From: an uncultured Muribaculaceae bacterium
Lineage (GTDB): Bacteria; Bacillota_I; Bacilli_A; RF39; UBA660
Length of the DNA: 64,000 bases
Assembly (NCBI GenBank): GCA_964513345.1
Contig: CAZELY010000003.1
Location: 9,371 to 73,370, forward strand
Direction: 5' to 3'
The notes below the pieces were generated by a model that worked only from the letters and a program-made list of their open reading frames with translations, did not search any database and was not told the origin of the DNA. Shown here one piece after another: positions 10,607 through 29,033 of this stretch (the first letter of the stretch is position 1; each line of letters begins with the position of its first letter). Position numbers and translations under genes: made by a program.

Positions 10607-11656
10607 ATGAATAAAACAAAACAAAAAAATATATTTATCATTAGCTTACTAGCTATAGTACTAATAATGGCCGTAGGCTATGCAGCTTTCGCAACAAATC
10701 TAACGGTAAATGGGACAGCAAGTATTTCATCAAATTGGTGTATAGGGTTTGATAGTACTAAAACTACAGATTATGTAGCAAGTAAAACTCATTCTACTGG
10801 AGACACACCAACAGGAAGTATTTCATTTAGTGGAAATGCATGTCAGACTAACTATAAAACAAATGCATCTTTAGTAGCTAATTTTAAACAACCAGGAGAT
10901 AAAATAGAATATACCCTAACAATAGCAAATAAAGGAAGTTTAGCAGCAGCAATAGAAAGTATCTTAGTAGATAATAATAACGTAACATCTAATCAAACAA
11001 TAACAAAAGGAAATGTAAAATATACAATAGAGATGCCATTAGATACATCATTAGCAGAAAATGAAACCACAACCATGCAAATAACAGCGGAGTTTCAAAA
11101 TGATACAAATATAAGCACCTCTAGTACAAGTACAGAAACCATAAGTGTTCAAATTAATGCCACCCAAGATGATGGTAGTGGAGGCTTCACTCCAACCCCA
11201 GCAGCGCAAACAGTATACGCAATCAATACAAGTAGTATATATAAAAACACATCAACGCTACAAGATATAGGAACAACGTATAATAGTTGTTCCGCAACAG
11301 GGAAGAATACATGTATAAGATATACTATAGAAAATGATATCGTAACAGGAGCAGAAGCTTGCTTTGTAAAAGGCGGAACTGAGTATTGCCTAAAAGGCTG
11401 GGTAGATGAGTGCTTGTATGATGGTAACGATTGTACATTTACAGGAACACAAACAGTATATAATGCCAATAAAACAACATTACAAACAGCCTTTACAGAA
11501 ACAAATGCCTGTTCTGATATTGGCTATGATTTCGGCTGCGATGCTTCCGGTTTCGATGCCAGCGCCAATAATGAGGGCGGCGTCTATGCGTACGATGGCG
11601 GCTGGAGCTGCTATGTCTATTCAGATGGCAATGCCGACTGCAGCGACAGCAGTTAG
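10607..11656 (+). CDS. Secreted protein: TasA/SipW-type leader, TasA(camelysin)-like N-domain, six-Cys C-terminal module
   Basis: The leader ..IMAVGYA|AFATNLTVNGTAS parallels TasA ..GGTWA|AFNDIKS..ASGTLDL. NFKQPGDKIEYTLTIANKGSLAAAI parallels TasA NLKPGDKLTKDFQFENNGSLAIKEV. The C-terminal Cys-rich module is shared with 52331-52933 and 61948-62928. Confidence 0.65.
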   Translation: MNKTKQKNIFIISLLAIVLIMAVGYAAFATNLTVNGTASISSNWCIGFDSTKTTDYVASKTHSTGDTPTGSISFSGNACQTNYKTNASLVANFKQPGDKIEYTLTIANKGSLAAAIESILVDNNNVTSNQTITKGNVKYTIEMPLDTSLAENETTTMQITAEFQNDTNISTSSTSTETISVQINATQDDGSGGFTPTPAAQTVYAINTSSIYKNTSTLQDIGTTYNSCSATGKNTCIRYTIENDIVTGAEACFVKGGTEYCLKGWVDECLYDGNDCTFTGTQTVYNANKTTLQTAFTETNACSDIGYDFGCDASGFDASANNEGGVYAYDGGWSCYVYSDGNADCSDSS

Positions 11657-14133: not shown

Positions 14134-14153
14134 ATATTAATCTATACTTTTTT
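14124..14153. terminator. Bidirectional terminator shared by the convergent clpC and asnB genes
   Basis: AAAAGTATAGAT-atta-ATCTATACTTTT: a 12-bp stem spanning both stop codons, with A/T runs on both sides. Confidence 0.8.
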
Positions 14154-15978
14154 CAAAATCAATAAAGAAAGTTTTGTACCAAATAAGGAATGCATAAACC
14201 GTCCAAATTTTGCGGCAATTGTTTTTTCTGCCTTTATAATGATCGTCAAGCATTTTATTCAATTTATTTATTTCAAAAAACTCTTTTGTAAAGTCCTGAT
14301 TAAATAAATCCTTAGCTAAATTATAATATTTTTCCTCTCTAAACCATTTAATAATTGGAACAGGGAATCCTTTTTTAGGTCTTTTGTACCAATCTTCAGG
14401 AATTCTTTTTGAGGCTGCTTGCCTTAAGGCATATTTAGTTGTGCCATGTGATATTTTATAATCCGTTTGAATAGTATTAGCTAAGGCAAATACCTCTTTG
14501 TCAAGTATTGGTACACGAAGCTCTAATGAATTTGCCATACTCATTTTATCAGCTTTTAGAAGAATATCATTAGGAAGCCAAAAGTGCATATCCAAATATT
14601 GCATTTTTGTAACATCATCTTCATTTTTAACTTCGTCAAAATAAGGTCGCGTAATATCTTGATACGTAGTACTATTTTTATATTTATCACTTAAAATATT
14701 ATTGGCACCTTTATTATCAAAAACGAAAGCTTCACCAACAAAGTAATCTTCAACTTTGCTGCCACCTTTAGTTAAGAAATTCTTACCGTGAAAATCAGGT
14801 AGGGGAGAAATAATAGTTTTAATAAATTTTCTTATAAAGAAAGGTAATTTACGGTATTTAATTAACAAATCATCTTCTTTATAAAATGGATAACCCCCAA
14901 ATAATTCGTCGGCACCCTCACCAGATAAAACAACCTTTACATATTTGCTTGCTAATGCTGATAAAAAATAAAGTGGCACTGCTGATAAATTAGCCGTTGG
15001 TTCATCAGCATAATATTCTACTTTATCTAAGCTTTCAAAAAAATCATCAGCATCTATTAATTCATTAATGTTTTCAATTTTTAAAATATCTGATAGTTCT
15101 TTAGCATAGGGCACTTCATTAAATATTTCATAATCAAAACCAACAGAAAAAGTCTTATCTGGTTTTAAATAAGAAACTACATATGAAGAATCAATTCCAC
15201 CAGACAAATACGCACCTAAAGGCACATCAGAAATTAAGTGAGTGTCAATTGATGAAGTAACAGTATCGTCGATCTTTTTAACTAAGCTATCAAAATCTTG
15301 ATTGGTTGGTTTAAATTCAATTTGATAATATTTATTAATTTTAAGGTCATTATTAATAAAATCATATATAAAATAGTGACCAGGCAATAGCTTGTAAACA
15401 TTTTTAAAAAATGTCTCTTCATATACAGAAGTTTGAAAAGTTAAAAAAGGTTTCAATGATTTTTCATTAATTTCTTTTACAAAATCAGGGTGATATAAAA
15501 AACTTTTTATTTCTGAACCAAACATAAAAGTATCATTCATATTCGTATAATAAAAAGGTTTTTGTCCAAAGTGATCTCTGGCTCCAAAAAGAATATTATT
15601 CTTTTTATCCCAAATAACGAAAGCAAACATTCCCCTTAAATGATCTAATACTTTTTCTTTGTATTCTTCGTAACCATGAAGTAATACTTCAGTATCCGAA
15701 TTAGTTTTGAAAATATGGCCCTTTTTAACTAAATCTTCTTTTATATCTTTAAAATTATAGATTTCACCATTGAAAGTAATAACATAATCGTTATCAAGCA
15801 TTGGTTGACGTCCATTTTGTAAATCAATAATTGATAATCTTCGAAACCCCATATTAATGTAGTTATCTTTATAGTAATTTTCATCATCTGGTCCTCGATG
15901 AGCAATCGCATCAGTCATTTTTTTAATATCTATTTCATTTTTTTCTTTTTTATTTATATATCCGCAAAAACCGCACAT
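14137..15978 (-). CDS. asnB: Asparagine synthase (glutamine-hydrolysing), AsnB family
   Basis: I place the start at MCGFCGY (Cys2 nucleophile), with GAAAGGAAG 7 nt upstream. The 9 extra codons in the ORF track are rejected. SGGIDSS PP-loop present. Confidence 0.85.
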   Translation of the reverse strand: MCGFCGYINKKEKNEIDIKKMTDAIAHRGPDDENYYKDNYINMGFRRLSIIDLQNGRQPMLDNDYVITFNGEIYNFKDIKEDLVKKGHIFKTNSDTEVLLHGYEEYKEKVLDHLRGMFAFVIWDKKNNILFGARDHFGQKPFYYTNMNDTFMFGSEIKSFLYHPDFVKEINEKSLKPFLTFQTSVYEETFFKNVYKLLPGHYFIYDFINNDLKINKYYQIEFKPTNQDFDSLVKKIDDTVTSSIDTHLISDVPLGAYLSGGIDSSYVVSYLKPDKTFSVGFDYEIFNEVPYAKELSDILKIENINELIDADDFFESLDKVEYYADEPTANLSAVPLYFLSALASKYVKVVLSGEGADELFGGYPFYKEDDLLIKYRKLPFFIRKFIKTIISPLPDFHGKNFLTKGGSKVEDYFVGEAFVFDNKGANNILSDKYKNSTTYQDITRPYFDEVKNEDDVTKMQYLDMHFWLPNDILLKADKMSMANSLELRVPILDKEVFALANTIQTDYKISHGTTKYALRQAASKRIPEDWYKRPKKGFPVPIIKWFREEKYYNLAKDLFNQDFTKEFFEINKLNKMLDDHYKGRKNNCRKIWTVYAFLIWYKTFFIDFEKSID

Positions 15979-15992
15979 AATATTCTTCCTTT

Positions 15993-17201
15993 CTAGGATT
16001 TCCAATATCCATTTTTGTAGTCTTTAAAATATCTAAAGTTTTTTCTTACAAGAAACAATATTCTTTTAAATGGCAAATCTTTTTTATAATAAAGAGGATT
16101 TACAACTTTTTTTTCTTTATAAAGCTTAAGAATTTCTTTTTTGAATTCTTCGTTTACAACATATTTTTTAACAATAGCTTTAGGAACGTAACTCAAAGCT
16201 ATTTTATTTTTGACAATTTGAAAATCATTGGTTTTATGATAAACCAAATCATCAACCACGTATTTTACTAAATTAAAACCAGCTGCTGTTACATAATAAC
16301 TACATCTACCTTGTCTAGCGTTAATTTCTAAAATTTTATATTTTGAATCACGATAATCATATTTAATATCTAATTCGGCTAATCCTTTAAAATTAATACT
16401 TTCCATAAAATCTTTAAATTTAGTAATAGTTTTTTCATCGTAACCATTGGTTGTAAAACCATTAATTAAACAAGCGGCGTTTCCAACCATTTTTGACGTA
16501 TGTTCCTGAAGACCAATTTGAGCAAAAGCGGCAAATTCACATTTACCATTAGAATTACAGTATACGACCATATCGTGAAGAGCACTATCATCGCCAGGAA
16601 TATATTCTTGGATGATTAATGTGTCAGTATAATCACTATTTTTAAAATAATTGATTGTTTCATTTACCTCATCCATATTATTTAATTTATATATTTTCTT
16701 TTTACCAGCAAATTCTATATGATTAAACATAATTACATTACTAGGTTTAATAATAACAGGAAAATCAAAATCTATTTTTAATTCATCTTTTAAATTATAA
16801 ATAATAGTTTTAGGAAGCAATCCAGAATCACCATACGTTTTAAAGAATAAATCTTTCATCATTAAAGAATCTAAGAATTTTAAATCAACATAATTGAAAA
16901 CAATACGATCGTCAAGCTTATCTTTATTGAAAACTAAATTTCTTGCATAAGTTTCATTAGAACTAATGCAAACAATTTTGGAAGCTTTAATATCAGAAAC
17001 ATATTCATTTAAGGCTTCGGCAAAAGTGTTAGTATCCCATAGTCGATTATCAATAGTTAAATTAATTATATTTGAATGGTTGACAAAACTCATTGATTTA
17101 ACAGCAATAACTCTAACTTTTTTTCCATATGCTTCATGAGCACATCTGGCCATATAATAAGCATTTGCATCGCTTCCAATAATAATGACTTCAAATTCCA
17201 T
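15993..17201 (-). CDS. ATP-grasp carboxylate-amine ligase, D-aspartate-ligase-like
   Basis: IIIGSDANAYYMARCAHEAYG, EYIPGDDSALHDM and LDIKYDYRDSKYKILEINARQGRCSYYVT match my recollection of the Enterococcus/Lactococcus D-Asp ligase (Asl) family. This is from memory, not a search. Confidence 0.55.
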   Translation of the reverse strand: MEFEVIIIGSDANAYYMARCAHEAYGKKVRVIAVKSMSFVNHSNIINLTIDNRLWDTNTFAEALNEYVSDIKASKIVCISSNETYARNLVFNKDKLDDRIVFNYVDLKFLDSLMMKDLFFKTYGDSGLLPKTIIYNLKDELKIDFDFPVIIKPSNVIMFNHIEFAGKKKIYKLNNMDEVNETINYFKNSDYTDTLIIQEYIPGDDSALHDMVVYCNSNGKCEFAAFAQIGLQEHTSKMVGNAACLINGFTTNGYDEKTITKFKDFMESINFKGLAELDIKYDYRDSKYKILEINARQGRCSYYVTAAGFNLVKYVVDDLVYHKTNDFQIVKNKIALSYVPKAIVKKYVVNEEFKKEILKLYKEKKVVNPLYYKKDLPFKRILFLVRKNFRYFKDYKNGYWKS

Positions 17202-17211
17202 AATTGTCCTC

Positions 17212-18366
17212 CTAGTATTTTATTTCAGTTTCTTTGTTATCCTCAATATATACTCTAGGAACTCTATTAGTAATACTTATAAATAATTGGTAAGCACTAA
17301 TTCCAAGTTCTTGAGATCTTTTTCTTATATTTTTATATATAATAACTTCATCATATAATTTAACACTATCATCGATTAAAACAGCGGTCATATCCATACC
17401 AATTTCGCCGATAATAGGATATTCTTTATCATTAATAGTAACATTTAATCCTTCATTTTGTTTTAATAATCCATCAGCATAGCCAATTGCCATAATACCA
17501 ATTTTGATATTTTTATTAGCTACAAATTTAGCTCCGTAACCTACATATTCACCTTTTCTAACATTTTTAATGGCGATAATTTCAGAATGTAGTGATAATG
17601 CTGTTTTTAAATTCAAATTATTTGTAAATGTTACTCTACTAATATTGTGTTTTTTCAAATAATGATTTCTTTTAATTAATCTAAGACCAGTTGGTTCGTT
17701 TAAACTTTGACTAAAACCATACATAATAATACCAAGTCTAACACCATTTACAAAAGATGGAAATTTATGTTGAACCATAGTAAGGGATCTGCCCAAATGA
17801 ATAATTGGTATTTTATTAAGGTCGATTAAACTAGTAATTTCTTTGAAATTTCTAAAGCCATCATCAAAATGTTTATCCCACATACCACTAGTCCCAAAGT
17901 GTGTATATATACCTTCAACTTCCATCTTGCTATTTAATAATTTATCAAAAACTTCTTTTAATTGATTCTTGTCTTTAAATCCAAGACGATTCATACCATT
18001 ATCAACTTTTAAATGAACTTTTAATTTTTTAGATAAATCTAATTTGTTAAAATAATCTATATCAGGAATAGTAATGGTAATGTTTTCTTTTTCACAAACA
18101 TCCAAAAAATCCACATGAATAGGTTCTAAACATAAAATAGGTATGTGTTTATTTCTTTTTCTAATTGAAATACATTCTTCCAAAGAAGAGGCTGCCAAAT
18201 AATTTATACCACCATCAATTAAAGAATTAACAACATAATCACCATGCCCATAAGCATTAGCTTTAACAACACCAATATAATATTGATAGTCGTATTTTTC
18301 TTTAATTTCCTTAATATTGTTTTTAAGTGTGTTACAATCAATTTTAACGTAAGTTTTTCGATACAT
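17212..18366 (-). CDS. alr: PLP-dependent alanine-racemase-fold racemase
   Basis: The VVKANAYGHGD motif (PLP lysine) and the C-terminal beta domain. First gene of a tightly packed three-gene minus-strand operon. Confidence 0.8.
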   Translation of the reverse strand: MYRKTYVKIDCNTLKNNIKEIKEKYDYQYYIGVVKANAYGHGDYVVNSLIDGGINYLAASSLEECISIRKRNKHIPILCLEPIHVDFLDVCEKENITITIPDIDYFNKLDLSKKLKVHLKVDNGMNRLGFKDKNQLKEVFDKLLNSKMEVEGIYTHFGTSGMWDKHFDDGFRNFKEITSLIDLNKIPIIHLGRSLTMVQHKFPSFVNGVRLGIIMYGFSQSLNEPTGLRLIKRNHYLKKHNISRVTFTNNLNLKTALSLHSEIIAIKNVRKGEYVGYGAKFVANKNIKIGIMAIGYADGLLKQNEGLNVTINDKEYPIIGEIGMDMTAVLIDDSVKLYDEVIIYKNIRKRSQELGISAYQLFISITNRVPRVYIEDNKETEIKY

Positions 18367-18514
18367 ATATTCACTTTCTTTCTTCTTAATAATTATATAA
18401 TATTTTAATTAGTAACGCAAATAAAAAAACGAGGAGATTTACAATAAATTTATATCATAATTCAAAAAATGTGGTATACTTATTAATAGAAGGATAATTG
18501 GAGTGTGTTGGCTT

Positions 18515-19123
18515 ATGTCACAAAAGAAATCATTACATATAAAAAGTGTTAATATTGATTATAATAAGGATTATTCATTTATAAGTCTCGTATTGCTTTT
18601 TTTCATATTTGCTTTTGTTGGATGGATTTGGGAAGTTTTTCTATGCTTAGTAATGGATGGTTCGCTAGCTAATAAAGGAACTTTGTTTGGACCATGGCTT
18701 CCTATATATGGTTTTGGTATGATTTTAATATTGGTACTATTAAGACCATTTAGAGGTAAATTAATTTTATATTTTTTCGCTTCAATGGCTTTAGCAATAG
18801 TACTAGAATATTTAACGGCTGTTTATTTGGAAACTATAATGCATATGAAATGGTGGGACTATAGTAATTATTATTTAAATTTTCAAGGGCGAATTTGTTT
18901 AGAAGGAGCATTGATGTTTGGACTAGGCAGCCTTTTAGTTACATATTTTGTAGCTCCAGTTTTGGATAACTGGTTCATGAGTCTTAGGCCTGATATTTTA
19001 ATCATGATATGTGTTATACTAGCAATATTCTTTTGCATCGATGTAATATATTCTAGTTATCATCCAAATAAAGGAGAAAACATAACTTCCTATAGGCCTG
19101 TGAATGCATATATTTATAAATAA
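18515..19123 (+). CDS. Polytopic membrane protein (DUF1113 / putative ABC-transporter type IV family)
   Basis: The FVGWIWEV...GTLFGPWLPIYGFG pattern. I prefer the ATG at 18515 to the GTG at 18503. Confidence 0.5.
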   Translation: MSQKKSLHIKSVNIDYNKDYSFISLVLLFFIFAFVGWIWEVFLCLVMDGSLANKGTLFGPWLPIYGFGMILILVLLRPFRGKLILYFFASMALAIVLEYLTAVYLETIMHMKWWDYSNYYLNFQGRICLEGALMFGLGSLLVTYFVAPVLDNWFMSLRPDILIMICVILAIFFCIDVIYSSYHPNKGENITSYRPVNAYIYK

Positions 19124-19333: not shown

Positions 19334-19867
19334 ATGGTAGAAACGCTTAAAAATACTCTTAATGCAAATCAAAATATCACACCAGAGGTAAAGGAAAACC
19401 TCATAGAATTAATTGAACTTTTTAATAAAAAATTTCCAGATGTTGATCTAAATAACTTAAATGAAAGATTAAAAACATTAAAGATTAAAAGAGCTAGTAT
19501 GTTTTTAGTAAAGCTACCTTGCCAATATAATCCACACGCGAATGAGATAATGGTCAATCTTGGAAGGTTTGAACAAAGTGATGCAAGACACTGGATGATG
19601 CATGCATTACTTGGTATAATTACAGCAAAAGAAAACTACTATGGATTTAACAATGCTGATGATTCCTTAGTTGCTTTAAATGAGGGCTATACAGAAATAA
19701 TTACTAACTACTTAGTTGGTGATATAGAAGAAAATTTCTTCTTTGATGAAATCGTTATTACTAATTTAATAAGTAAGGCTATTGGTGAAGACGTATTATT
19801 TGATGCTTATTTTAGTAACGATTCTAAAAAGGTGCTGGAAGCGATGATTGAAGCGGAGGGTAAATAG
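19334..19867 (+). CDS. Hypothetical protein
   Basis: 177-aa ORF with a GGTGAT RBS. No motif recognised. Confidence 0.5.
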   Translation: MVETLKNTLNANQNITPEVKENLIELIELFNKKFPDVDLNNLNERLKTLKIKRASMFLVKLPCQYNPHANEIMVNLGRFEQSDARHWMMHALLGIITAKENYYGFNNADDSLVALNEGYTEIITNYLVGDIEENFFFDEIVITNLISKAIGEDVLFDAYFSNDSKKVLEAMIEAEGK

Positions 19868-28334: not shown

Positions 28335-29033
28335 ATGTTTAAAAAAATAAAAGAAAATGAAAAGGTACAAAAAATAATTGAACTTTGGAAAAACCCTAAA
28401 ACTCACGACTTAATAGTTTTGGCTTTTTGGCTTATATTTATTTTCATTGTTATTATATTTGCTAGAAGTGTGGCATCACCAAATGTAAAAAATGTTGATG
28501 TAAAAGCTTATACAAACAGCTTTGAATATATTAATAATTATGATTTTACATATGAGTCACTTGATTATAAGGTTCATGGATCTTACTATGATGATAAATT
28601 AGTTTTCTACTTAGATAATAAACGCTATTATTATCATGAGAACACTTATTTGATTGATAAAGAAGCAACCTTAGTTCCAAATTATGATTTAGGTATTTTA
28701 AAGATCAACCCTAAAATGCTTAATAATTTAGTAGGTGGTATAACGCCAAGTGAAAATGGTGAATTTAAACAATATTCAGTGCCGCTTGATCGATTTATAA
28801 ATTTATATGAAATTGATACCGATGTTGATTTATCTAAAGCTGCTACATATAATGTAGTTATAAAAGTTTATTTAGTAGATAATGAAATATCGAAAGTTAT
28901 TTTAGATTTATCAAATTATTATTTAATGAAAGGTAATTTGATTAATAACCCAGTAACCATTTATTATTATAATATAAATAATATTAGTGATTTTAGTAAA
29001 GGTTATGACAAACTATTGGAGGTGAAGGAATGA
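28335..29033 (+). CDS. Membrane-anchored hypothetical protein
   Basis: One N-terminal TM followed by a Tyr/Asn-rich extracytoplasmic domain. No motif recognised. Confidence 0.45.
   Translation: MFKKIKENEKVQKIIELWKNPKTHDLIVLAFWLIFIFIVIIFARSVASPNVKNVDVKAYTNSFEYINNYDFTYESLDYKVHGSYYDDKLVFYLDNKRYYYHENTYLIDKEATLVPNYDLGILKINPKMLNNLVGGITPSENGEFKQYSVPLDRFINLYEIDTDVDLSKAATYNVVIKVYLVDNEISKVILDLSNYYLMKGNLINNPVTIYYYNINNISDFSKGYDKLLEVKE

Follow-up and report, generated by a model that had tools for sequence, protein, structure and literature searches.

An alanine-racemase-fold enzyme, a D-aspartate-ligase-family ATP-grasp protein and AsnB as a candidate peptidoglycan side-branch module of uncultured gut bacteria

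Introduction

D-Aspartate (D-Asp) cross-bridges that are made by the ligase AslA together with the racemase RacD and are amidated by AsnH are the rule in Lactococcus lactis and most lactobacilli (PMC4155827). Here, we describe an operon with a comparable set of three genes, encoding an alanine-racemase-fold (Alr-fold) racemase, an ATP-grasp ligase and an AsnB-type amidotransferase. It lies in a 64 000-nucleotide stretch of DNA from an uncultured Muribaculaceae bacterium (GTDB lineage Bacillota_I, Bacilli_A, RF39, UBA660; assembly GCA_964513345.1, contig CAZELY010000003.1, positions 9371–73 370), which we refer to in its full length as the window. We propose that the three genes make up a module for a side branch (cross-bridge) of the peptidoglycan, and assign to this reading a probability of about 0.7.

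Both RacD/AslA/AsnH of L. lactis and Racfm/Aslfm of Enterococcus faecium share with this module an ATP-grasp ligase of the same family, followed by an AsnB-family amidotransferase, and a racemase gene that adjoins the ligase gene. Congeners of our bacterium hold the classical version at the same locus. Nevertheless, the module departs from the classical D-Asp system in the type of its racemase and the clade of its ligase. The racemase depends on pyridoxal 5′-phosphate (PLP) and has the Alr fold, whereas RacD is cofactor-independent and of the Asp/Glu type. The ligase belongs to a separate clade, is 29–37% identical to its classical counterparts and carries a clade-specific Glu276, and the acceptor is probably meso-diaminopimelate (mDAP) in place of the lysine of the classical system. 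Judged by sequence, the pathway logic and the families of the ligase and AsnB would thus be the known part, and the Alr-type racemase with a ligase clade of its own the variant part. In the literature we found no paper in which an Alr-type racemase is the partner of an Asl-like ligase, nor one on an Alr-fold aspartate racemase.

Each of the three proteins has further described relatives. AsnB1 of Lactiplantibacillus plantarum is an AsnB-family enzyme that amidates mDAP and is encoded near murE, as is a paralog on contig C22 of the present genome; AsnB of Bacillus subtilis and LtsA of Corynebacterium glutamicum also amidate mDAP. The closest relatives of the ligase from cultured organisms are those of the Planococcaceae (Planococcus, Sporosarcina and relatives), a sister clade at 36–41% identity that is without an adjacent racemase or AsnB and has Asn at position 276, where the module has Glu. 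The hosts of this clade are species with L-Lys-D-Glu or L-Lys-D-Asp peptidoglycan, the former being documented for Planococcus (PMC7294307). VanT, a serine racemase, and the broad-spectrum and lysine racemases resemble the module in being Alr-fold paralogs that provide a non-standard wall D-amino acid beside the ligase that uses it. The hallmark Tyr354→Asn of VanT is, however, absent from the module racemase, which has N203R, D171G and Q314M, lacks E355 and contains a basic insert, and which scores far below the cut-offs of the VanT models. PylC (PDB entry 4FFL), which joins a D-amino acid carboxyl to the ε-amine of lysine, is among the best structural matches of the ligase; it is nevertheless only 13% identical, belongs to a different pathway and is not a member of the family.

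The operon and its linkage across species

The three minus-strand genes are tightly packed and are separated by 10 nt (17202–17211) and 14 nt (15979–15992), as in the original prediction; the second gap corresponds to a start of asnB at ATG 15978. A mechanical call gives an open reading frame (ORF) of 14137–16005 with a TTG start at 16005. We consider this start to be wrong because the ATG at 15978 yields the N-terminus MCGFCG, with Cys2 as the nucleophile of the N-terminal nucleophile (Ntn) amidotransferases. Each gap contains a purine run, AGGAGG or AAGGAAG, that resembles a ribosome-binding site. The operon is convergent to clpC, and genes for a class B penicillin-binding protein (PBP), mraY and ftsW lie 2 kb from it in the window.

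A scan of one genome per species gave 80 loci, 63 of which contain a ligase that is 40–81% identical to that of the window. A full Alr-like gene is located directly upstream of the ligase in 59 of these 63 loci, and one more shows the 3′ end of an Alr gene at a contig edge. Expressed over the evaluable loci, the Alr-like gene precedes the clade ligase in 60 of 62 and is missing from two. AsnB follows the ligase directly in 42 of the 63 loci, with a murE-like gene next in several. Order and tight spacing are kept across Bacilli, Clostridia and other lineages, and AsnB is translationally coupled to the ligase across phyla. Since the gene order and similar spacing recur in dozens of species-level loci, the arrangement is not due to chance. 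This conservation also argues against an alternative in which the three genes share no pathway, with Alr supplying D-alanine (D-Ala) to the peptide stem, AsnB making asparagine and the ATP-grasp protein being unrelated to peptidoglycan.

The surroundings of the relatives are those of cell-wall genes. In three Clostridia loci the dcw cluster contains the Alr–ligase pair, placed on the opposite strand between ftsL and ftsI, and in other lineages the pair lies next to murE. RacD was not seen beside the Alr-linked clade ligase in the loci examined, and a RacD-type gene was not found in most module genomes. In the present genome no PF01177 gene (Asp/Glu-type racemase) was found and the partner of the ligase is the Alr-fold enzyme. 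A 210-residue ORF between the ligase and AsnB in one locus (L032) was suspected of being a RacD and is not one. As a separate observation, MurE-like genes adjacent to the module, other than that of congener G016 (below), have EDAR, EDPR, EDPG or VDPY as their specificity motif.

The racemase

The product of the first gene was predicted to be an Alr-fold PLP enzyme, in agreement with its matches to Ala_racemase_N (PF01168, E = 1e-42) and Ala_racemase_C (PF00842, E = 5e-28), its VVKANAYGHGD motif and a score of 262 bits against the NCBIfam alr equivalog TIGR00492 (cut-off 168). An alignment to Bacillus anthracis Alr and canonical Alrs shows that the equivalents of K35, the Tyr of VGYG, R136, R219, S204 and Y354 are kept. 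Compared with canonical Alr, the window enzyme has HLGRSLT for HxxNSAA, THFGTSG for THFATAD, GMDM for CMDQ and AYQ for NYE. Its two domains are separated by an additional basic segment of about 20 residues.

These features are not peculiar to the window. Throughout the ligase-linked Alr clade the motifs read HxGRSLT, THFATSG, xMDM and AY[QHTK], none of which occurs in 16 canonical Alrs, and the inter-domain basic insert of about 20 residues is common to the clade. HxGRSLT puts an arginine at the position of Asn203 and THFATSG represents the loss of the entryway aspartate; near the active site, the ligase-linked Alrs have gained one arginine and lost two acidic residues. The roles of the residues that line the entryway of Alr have been described, and in canonical Alr the Tyr354 gate restricts the side chain to small residues (PMC4517790). 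In the tree (trees here and below are mostly FastTree or quick IQ-TREE runs), a single branch with 100% support splits 62 ligase-linked Alrs from 15 canonical ones.

We examined 46 genomes that carry the module for further Alr-family genes. A canonical Alr is present besides the ligase-linked one in 12 of them, all larger Clostridia, sometimes only 3.6 kb away, and for this reason we regard the ligase-linked Alr as a dedicated paralog and not simply a housekeeping gene. In about 27 small module genomes the Alr-like copy of the module is the sole Alr-family gene. The original prediction would have stood on firmer ground with a separate housekeeping alr in this genome; instead, the module racemase is the only Alr-family gene found. 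This does not overturn a shared pathway, because the enzyme falls in a separate, altered clade, 12 genomes have a canonical Alr too and the congeners with RacD are mostly free of Alr. For three housekeeping enzymes without a common pathway, the evidence of the racemase is mixed: its being the sole Alr-family gene found and its passing the alr equivalog model are in favour, and the position of its clade apart from the canonical Alrs is against.

The ligase

The ligase has only sub-threshold ATP-grasp matches in Pfam and NCBIfam, and a sequence search of the PDB gave no match; the missing curated family assignment could be taken to favour a function outside the wall. Its AlphaFold2 model (predicted local distance difference test, pLDDT, 89.6; predicted template modelling score, pTM, 0.87) identifies the fold. 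The top Foldseek matches are all ATP-grasp proteins, with probability 1.0 and template modelling (TM) scores of 0.5–0.6, and the best PDB matches are the L-amino-acid ligase 3VOT, PylC 4FFL, biotin carboxylases, PurK and Ddl. Asp278 is located on the strand 273–282, and Glu292 and Asn294 on the strand 287–294, as expected for the Mg/ATP-binding Asp…Glu-x-Asn feature. Asp278 and Asn294 are invariant in all three ligase clades (see below) and Glu292 is invariant in a ten-sequence alignment. The strand that bears residues 276 and 278 is presumably the one that carries the catalytic arginine and the Mg-binding aspartate in Ddl.

The family was anchored on ligases from lactobacilli, which were found on large Lactobacillaceae replicons by a tblastn search of a plasmid collection. 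The window ligase is 29–31% identical to those of Lactobacillus crispatus, Latilactobacillus curvatus and Limosilactobacillus fermentum over 82–99% of the query, and the alignments are full length in two of the three cases. These anchor genes adjoin asnB or an Asp-type racemase: in Latilactobacillus curvatus the ligase gene comes after an 'amino acid racemase', and in L. crispatus it comes after asnB. A protein atlas labels the clusters nearest to the ligase as 'D-aspartate ligase', which we use as a lead only. A profile search of 1.8 billion representatives yielded 487 relatives at E < 1e-30. Among them are fusions of the ligase to RacD (the Asp/Glu racemase), to FemAB, to a DegT aminotransferase (one also with FemAB) and to a response regulator (P0128, P0150, P0253, P0176, P0178, P0221, P0245, P0246 and P0204). 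The lactobacillus contexts together with the ligase–RacD and FemAB–ligase fusions tie the family to peptidoglycan branching; some of its members probably act on sugars.

Within the family, the Alr-linked ligases form one clade with 100% support. Its sister clade comes from cultured Planococcaceae, Virgibacillus and Nesterenkonia, organisms whose walls have D-Glu or D-Asp bridges, and lacks a racemase gene beside the ligase. The ligases of lactobacilli and those linked to RacD make up a 22-row clade (98% support), and the window ligase groups with the Planococcaceae ligases in a separate 38-row clade (99% support), apart from the ligases of species with D-Asp bridges. The original prediction of a D-Asp-ligase-like ATP-grasp protein therefore stands as far as the family is concerned, by the identity to the lactobacillus ligases and the ATP-grasp model, and not for a place within the lactobacillus/RacD-linked clade; on sequence, we assign the ligase to a separate clade of the D-aspartate-ligase family. 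The three groups have 33 residues in common. Position 276, two residues before the invariant Asp278, is Glu only in the Alr-linked clade and is Asn in both the RacD-linked and the Planococcaceae ligases.

The amidotransferase

The third protein consists of GATase_7 and Asn_synthase domains with MCGF at residues 1–4 and the PP-loop SGGIDS, and scores 518 bits against TIGR01536 (cut-off 267), which bears out its prediction as a glutamine-dependent AsnB-type enzyme. It is 73–82% identical to the same-site AsnB of congeners with either cassette type (described below), and a 48-row clade (99% support) unites it with the AsnBs encoded beside the ligase in both types and in L. crispatus.

The genome has a second AsnB paralog outside that clade, encoded on contig C22 (3294–6985, outside the window). 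This protein of 607 residues also starts with MCGF, is 51% identical to the AsnB of the window and is encoded two genes upstream of a murE whose product has the DNPR motif of the mDAP type. A link between asnB1 and murE has been reported for mDAP amidation in L. plantarum (PMC4155827). The AsnB of the window differs from AsnB1 in being the ligase-linked paralog of a different clade, and the pair in our genome would mirror AsnH versus AsnB1 of that work; the tree compares ligase-adjacent and murE-linked homologs and not the characterised AsnH and AsnB1 sequences. The simplest reading would be that the stem and the branch are each served by an AsnB of their own. A pair of paralogs, located by murE and by the ligase, respectively, is not what is expected of an AsnB that merely supplies asparagine, even though the asnB equivalog model is passed.

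Exchange of two cassettes at one site

We sampled 24 congeners (G001–G024; completeness in the genus 68–94%), and all of them have a homolog of the ligase, in one of two forms. In type A, found in the present genome and six others, the Alr-like gene is followed by a ligase 76–79% identical to that of the window and by AsnB. In type B, a ligase only 35–37% identical to that of the window is followed by a 225-residue Asp/Glu-type racemase (TIGR00035, 193 bits) and then by AsnB. Both types occupy the same site, between clpC/asnB and a conserved gene of 177 codons. DNA alignments of type A and type B loci give 82–92% identity in the flanks and almost no similarity between the cassettes (1.9 kb versus 2.4 kb), apart from one weak match of 270 nt at 68% in one pair. 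The two breakpoints fall where asnB begins and in the upstream spacer.

Among 17 genomes placed in a tree by their AsnB sequences, at least six changes of cassette type can be counted, and some sister pairs with AsnBs only a few percent apart hold different cassettes. The racemase–ligase pair thus behaves as a self-contained cassette and an alternative to the classical RacD and Asl pair, AsnB staying in place, and close relatives exchange the two, probably by recombination in the conserved flanks. The original reading of the genes as 'make, ligate, amidate' is supported by this same-site combination of RacD, a classical ligase and an orthologous AsnB, as it is by the family of the ligase and the dcw and murE contexts of its relatives.

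The two types also differ in their complement of Alr. Type A genomes have exactly one Alr, within the operon, and Alr is absent from the type B genomes except for one, where alr lies next to a short ddl. Alr is therefore not a fixed housekeeping gene in the genus, another point against three enzymes without a common pathway. Congener G016 carries a type B cassette at the conserved site and, on another contig (L018, 5498–11162), an additional cluster that resembles type A and includes a separate AsnB; this cluster is followed by a murE paralog with the specificity motif DDLH instead of DNPR.

D-Alanine, Ddl and MurF

Neither Ddl (PF07478) nor MurF was detected in the present genome. In one congener (G002; L128, 754–4340), an α/β-hydrolase, a 534-residue MurF-like ligase and a 399-residue Ddl are encoded between genes for proteins of 165 and 927 residues. 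The latter two genes are directly adjacent in our genome (contig C8, 33455–33625, outside the window) and in G007, G010, G011 and G014, and Ddl and MurF were not found anywhere in these five assemblies (84–94% complete). An assembly gap as the cause of the absence can be rejected for the usual site, since the flanking genes are contiguous on one contig both here and in the four congeners. Both Ddl and MurF are missing from ten of the 24 congeners, among which both cassette types are represented. The analysis did find MurC, MurD, MurE, MraY, FtsW and a PBP. Searches of our genome gave neither a DAP epimerase nor MurB nor an L,D-transpeptidase, the murB region being rearranged in the comparison with G021, and MurI is not detectable in many module genomes.

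The absence of a PF07478 match and of the Ddl–MurF block from its syntenic place raises the question of whether the ATP-grasp protein is a non-orthologous D-Ala–D-Ala ligase fed by the adjacent Alr, which would be a natural operon for an enzyme that uses D-Ala. We consider this barely credible. A canonical Ddl is present in 34 of the 46 module genomes (12 are without one) and in four of the seven type A congeners, and MurF, which is needed to use the dipeptide, is missing along with Ddl. Moreover, Ddl and MurF are equally absent from genomes with the RacD cassette, and the ligase belongs to the Asl family and not to the Ddl family. The same absence removes the main housekeeping use of D-Ala in our genome, and an operon of three unrelated housekeeping genes is on the whole very improbable.

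Apart from the one alr mentioned above, Alr-family genes and class-IV aminotransferases are both absent from the congeners with the RacD cassette, among them the closed 1.5 Mb genome G009. A route in which a D-amino-acid transaminase would use D-Ala to form D-Glu or D-Asp was considered and rejected: a class-IV aminotransferase occurs in none of the 24 congeners, and none is present in 37 of the 46 module genomes. D-Ala and D-Glu could reach these tiny genomes through scavenging or promiscuous racemases.

Proposed pathway and substrate

The gene identities, the fold, the clades, the linkage, the swap of cassettes and the cell-wall surroundings described above are observed; on top of these we infer an acceptor, a substrate and the following order of steps. 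The Alr-like enzyme would racemise an L-amino acid. The ATP-grasp ligase would then activate a carboxyl group of the D-amino acid as an acyl phosphate and couple it to the third stem residue of the uridine diphosphate N-acetylmuramic acid (UDP-MurNAc) peptide, at the free amino group of that residue. Finally, AsnB would use glutamine and ATP to amidate the carboxyl group that is left free on the branch. The third stem residue is probably mDAP because the MurE of this genome has the DNPR motif.

As the substrate we tentatively favour, at somewhat short of even odds, an acidic D-amino acid, most likely D-Asp, that would be provided by the PLP-dependent Alr-fold racemase; a neutral small residue (D-Ala or D-Ser) ranks next, and other substrates or an inverted ligation make up the remainder. 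A branch-linked AsnB would need a free carboxyl group on the branch, and AsnB appears to work with both cassettes without co-divergence. Frequent exchange of the cassettes would be disruptive if it changed the acceptor of the cross-link, and D-Asp would give the same product as the RacD cassette. The gain of one positive and the loss of two negative charges in the racemase would suit an acidic substrate, as would the fact that in most module genomes no RacD-type gene was found.

A number of observations weigh against this assignment. The racemase scores above the cut-off of the alanine-racemase equivalog and retains the Tyr354 gate, as would fit an enzyme for small side chains. Being the sole Alr-family gene here, as in about 27 further small genomes, it may simply provide D-Ala. 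On the active-site strand, the ligase clade, which is never accompanied by RacD in the loci examined, has an invariant change of Asn to Glu that argues for a substrate other than D-Asp, and the presence of both cassette types in G016 argues against their redundancy. The D-Asp-ligase anchoring uses lactobacillus homologs from species with known D-Asp bridges and not the characterised Aslfm and AslA proteins. In addition, all members of the Alr-linked clade that were found are uncultured metagenome-assembled genomes, with no cultured carrier among the clade members looked up.

Several of these observations would be accommodated by a neutral branch, in which D-Ala or D-Ser is ligated through its α-carboxyl group to the diamino acid of the stem and AsnB amidates a stem carboxyl group (of mDAP or D-Glu). 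In a variant, the ligase would activate a stem carboxyl group and add D-Ala via its amino group, after which AsnB would make a D-alanine amide. The TIGR00492 score, the Tyr354-equivalent gate and the full set of catalytic residues fit such a branch, as do the distinct ligase clade with its invariant Glu276 by the predicted Mg-binding Asp278, the association of this ligase with an Alr-like gene in nearly all evaluable loci and never with RacD in those examined, and the retention of both cassettes in G016. The structurally closest solved enzymes include PylC, with its linkage of a D-amino acid α-carboxyl to the lysine ε-amine. Furthermore, there is no MurT among the three Mur ligases found, so that amidation of D-Glu could need an AsnB. 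Nevertheless, the close coupling of AsnB to the ligase (5–25 nt apart at 42 loci, and seen with either cassette type) most simply means that AsnB acts on the product of the ligase, and the second, murE-linked AsnB is already available for the stem carboxyl group. A dedicated Alr-like gene would be redundant for D-Ala in the 12 genomes with a canonical Alr, and each of the repeated swaps with a D-Asp cassette would alter the acceptor residue of the transpeptidase. We therefore regard a neutral branch as unlikely, and retain the acidic branch as the working assignment for the substrate.

Taken one step further, the ligase-linked Alr-like enzymes may represent a new activity in the alanine-racemase fold, being PLP-dependent aspartate or other non-alanine racemases that feed a dedicated branch ligase, with the Alr-type and RacD-type cassettes as alternating alleles that related gut bacteria repeatedly exchange. 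This combined proposal is more speculative, and we put it forward as a possibility that is rather doubtful at present. Phage lysins, bacteriocins or the recognition of the wall by the host might then select for such an alternation.

Features of the locus

The coordinates of the operon are collected in Table 1. The window has a GC content of 28–30%, and the source genome comprises 886 kb in 31 contigs and is 84% complete. The promoter of the operon is presumed to lie in the spacer upstream of the racemase gene.

Table 1. Operon genes and upstream spacer, in window coordinates.
Feature	Coordinates	Strand	Length	Basis
Gene 1: Alr-fold PLP-dependent racemase, ligase-linked clade	17212..18366	-	384 aa	Pfam, TIGR00492, tree
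Gene 2: ATP-grasp carboxylate-amine ligase, D-aspartate-ligase family, Alr-linked clade	15993..17201	-	402 aa	Homology, tree, AlphaFold model
Gene 3: glutamine-dependent AsnB-family amidotransferase, AsnH-like	14137..15978	-	613 aa	MCGF, SGGIDS, TIGR01536
Upstream intergenic region of operon, AT-rich, before divergent gene at 18503	18367..18502		136 nt	Spacer

The divergent gene (18503–19123, plus strand) encodes a CmpB-like membrane protein (PF06541) and is located between the operon and the conserved gene for a 177-residue protein (19334–19867). In G021 and G007, two of the congeners, about 150–260 nt separate the operon from the latter gene, which leaves no space for a CmpB-like gene. The ORFs 10607–11656 (349 residues), 19334–19867 (177 residues) and 28335–29033 (232 residues) are conserved and have no Pfam match. 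The 349- and 177-residue ORFs, which also lack an NCBIfam match, keep their position across the genus and flank the locus.

Biological implications

The chemistry of the cross-bridge sets how the wall is cross-linked, which lysins, bacteriocins and lysozymes are able to cut it, and which fragments are seen by host receptors. The module is widespread in uncultured gut Firmicutes, with more than sixty species-level loci in a single scan. If the product of the Alr-like enzyme is not D-alanine, this would constitute a new racemase specificity in a well studied drug-target fold, and its partner ligase would represent a new activity in the building of peptidoglycan. The repeated and clean swap of two racemase–ligase cassettes at one locus amounts to a natural experiment on the diversification of wall chemistry.

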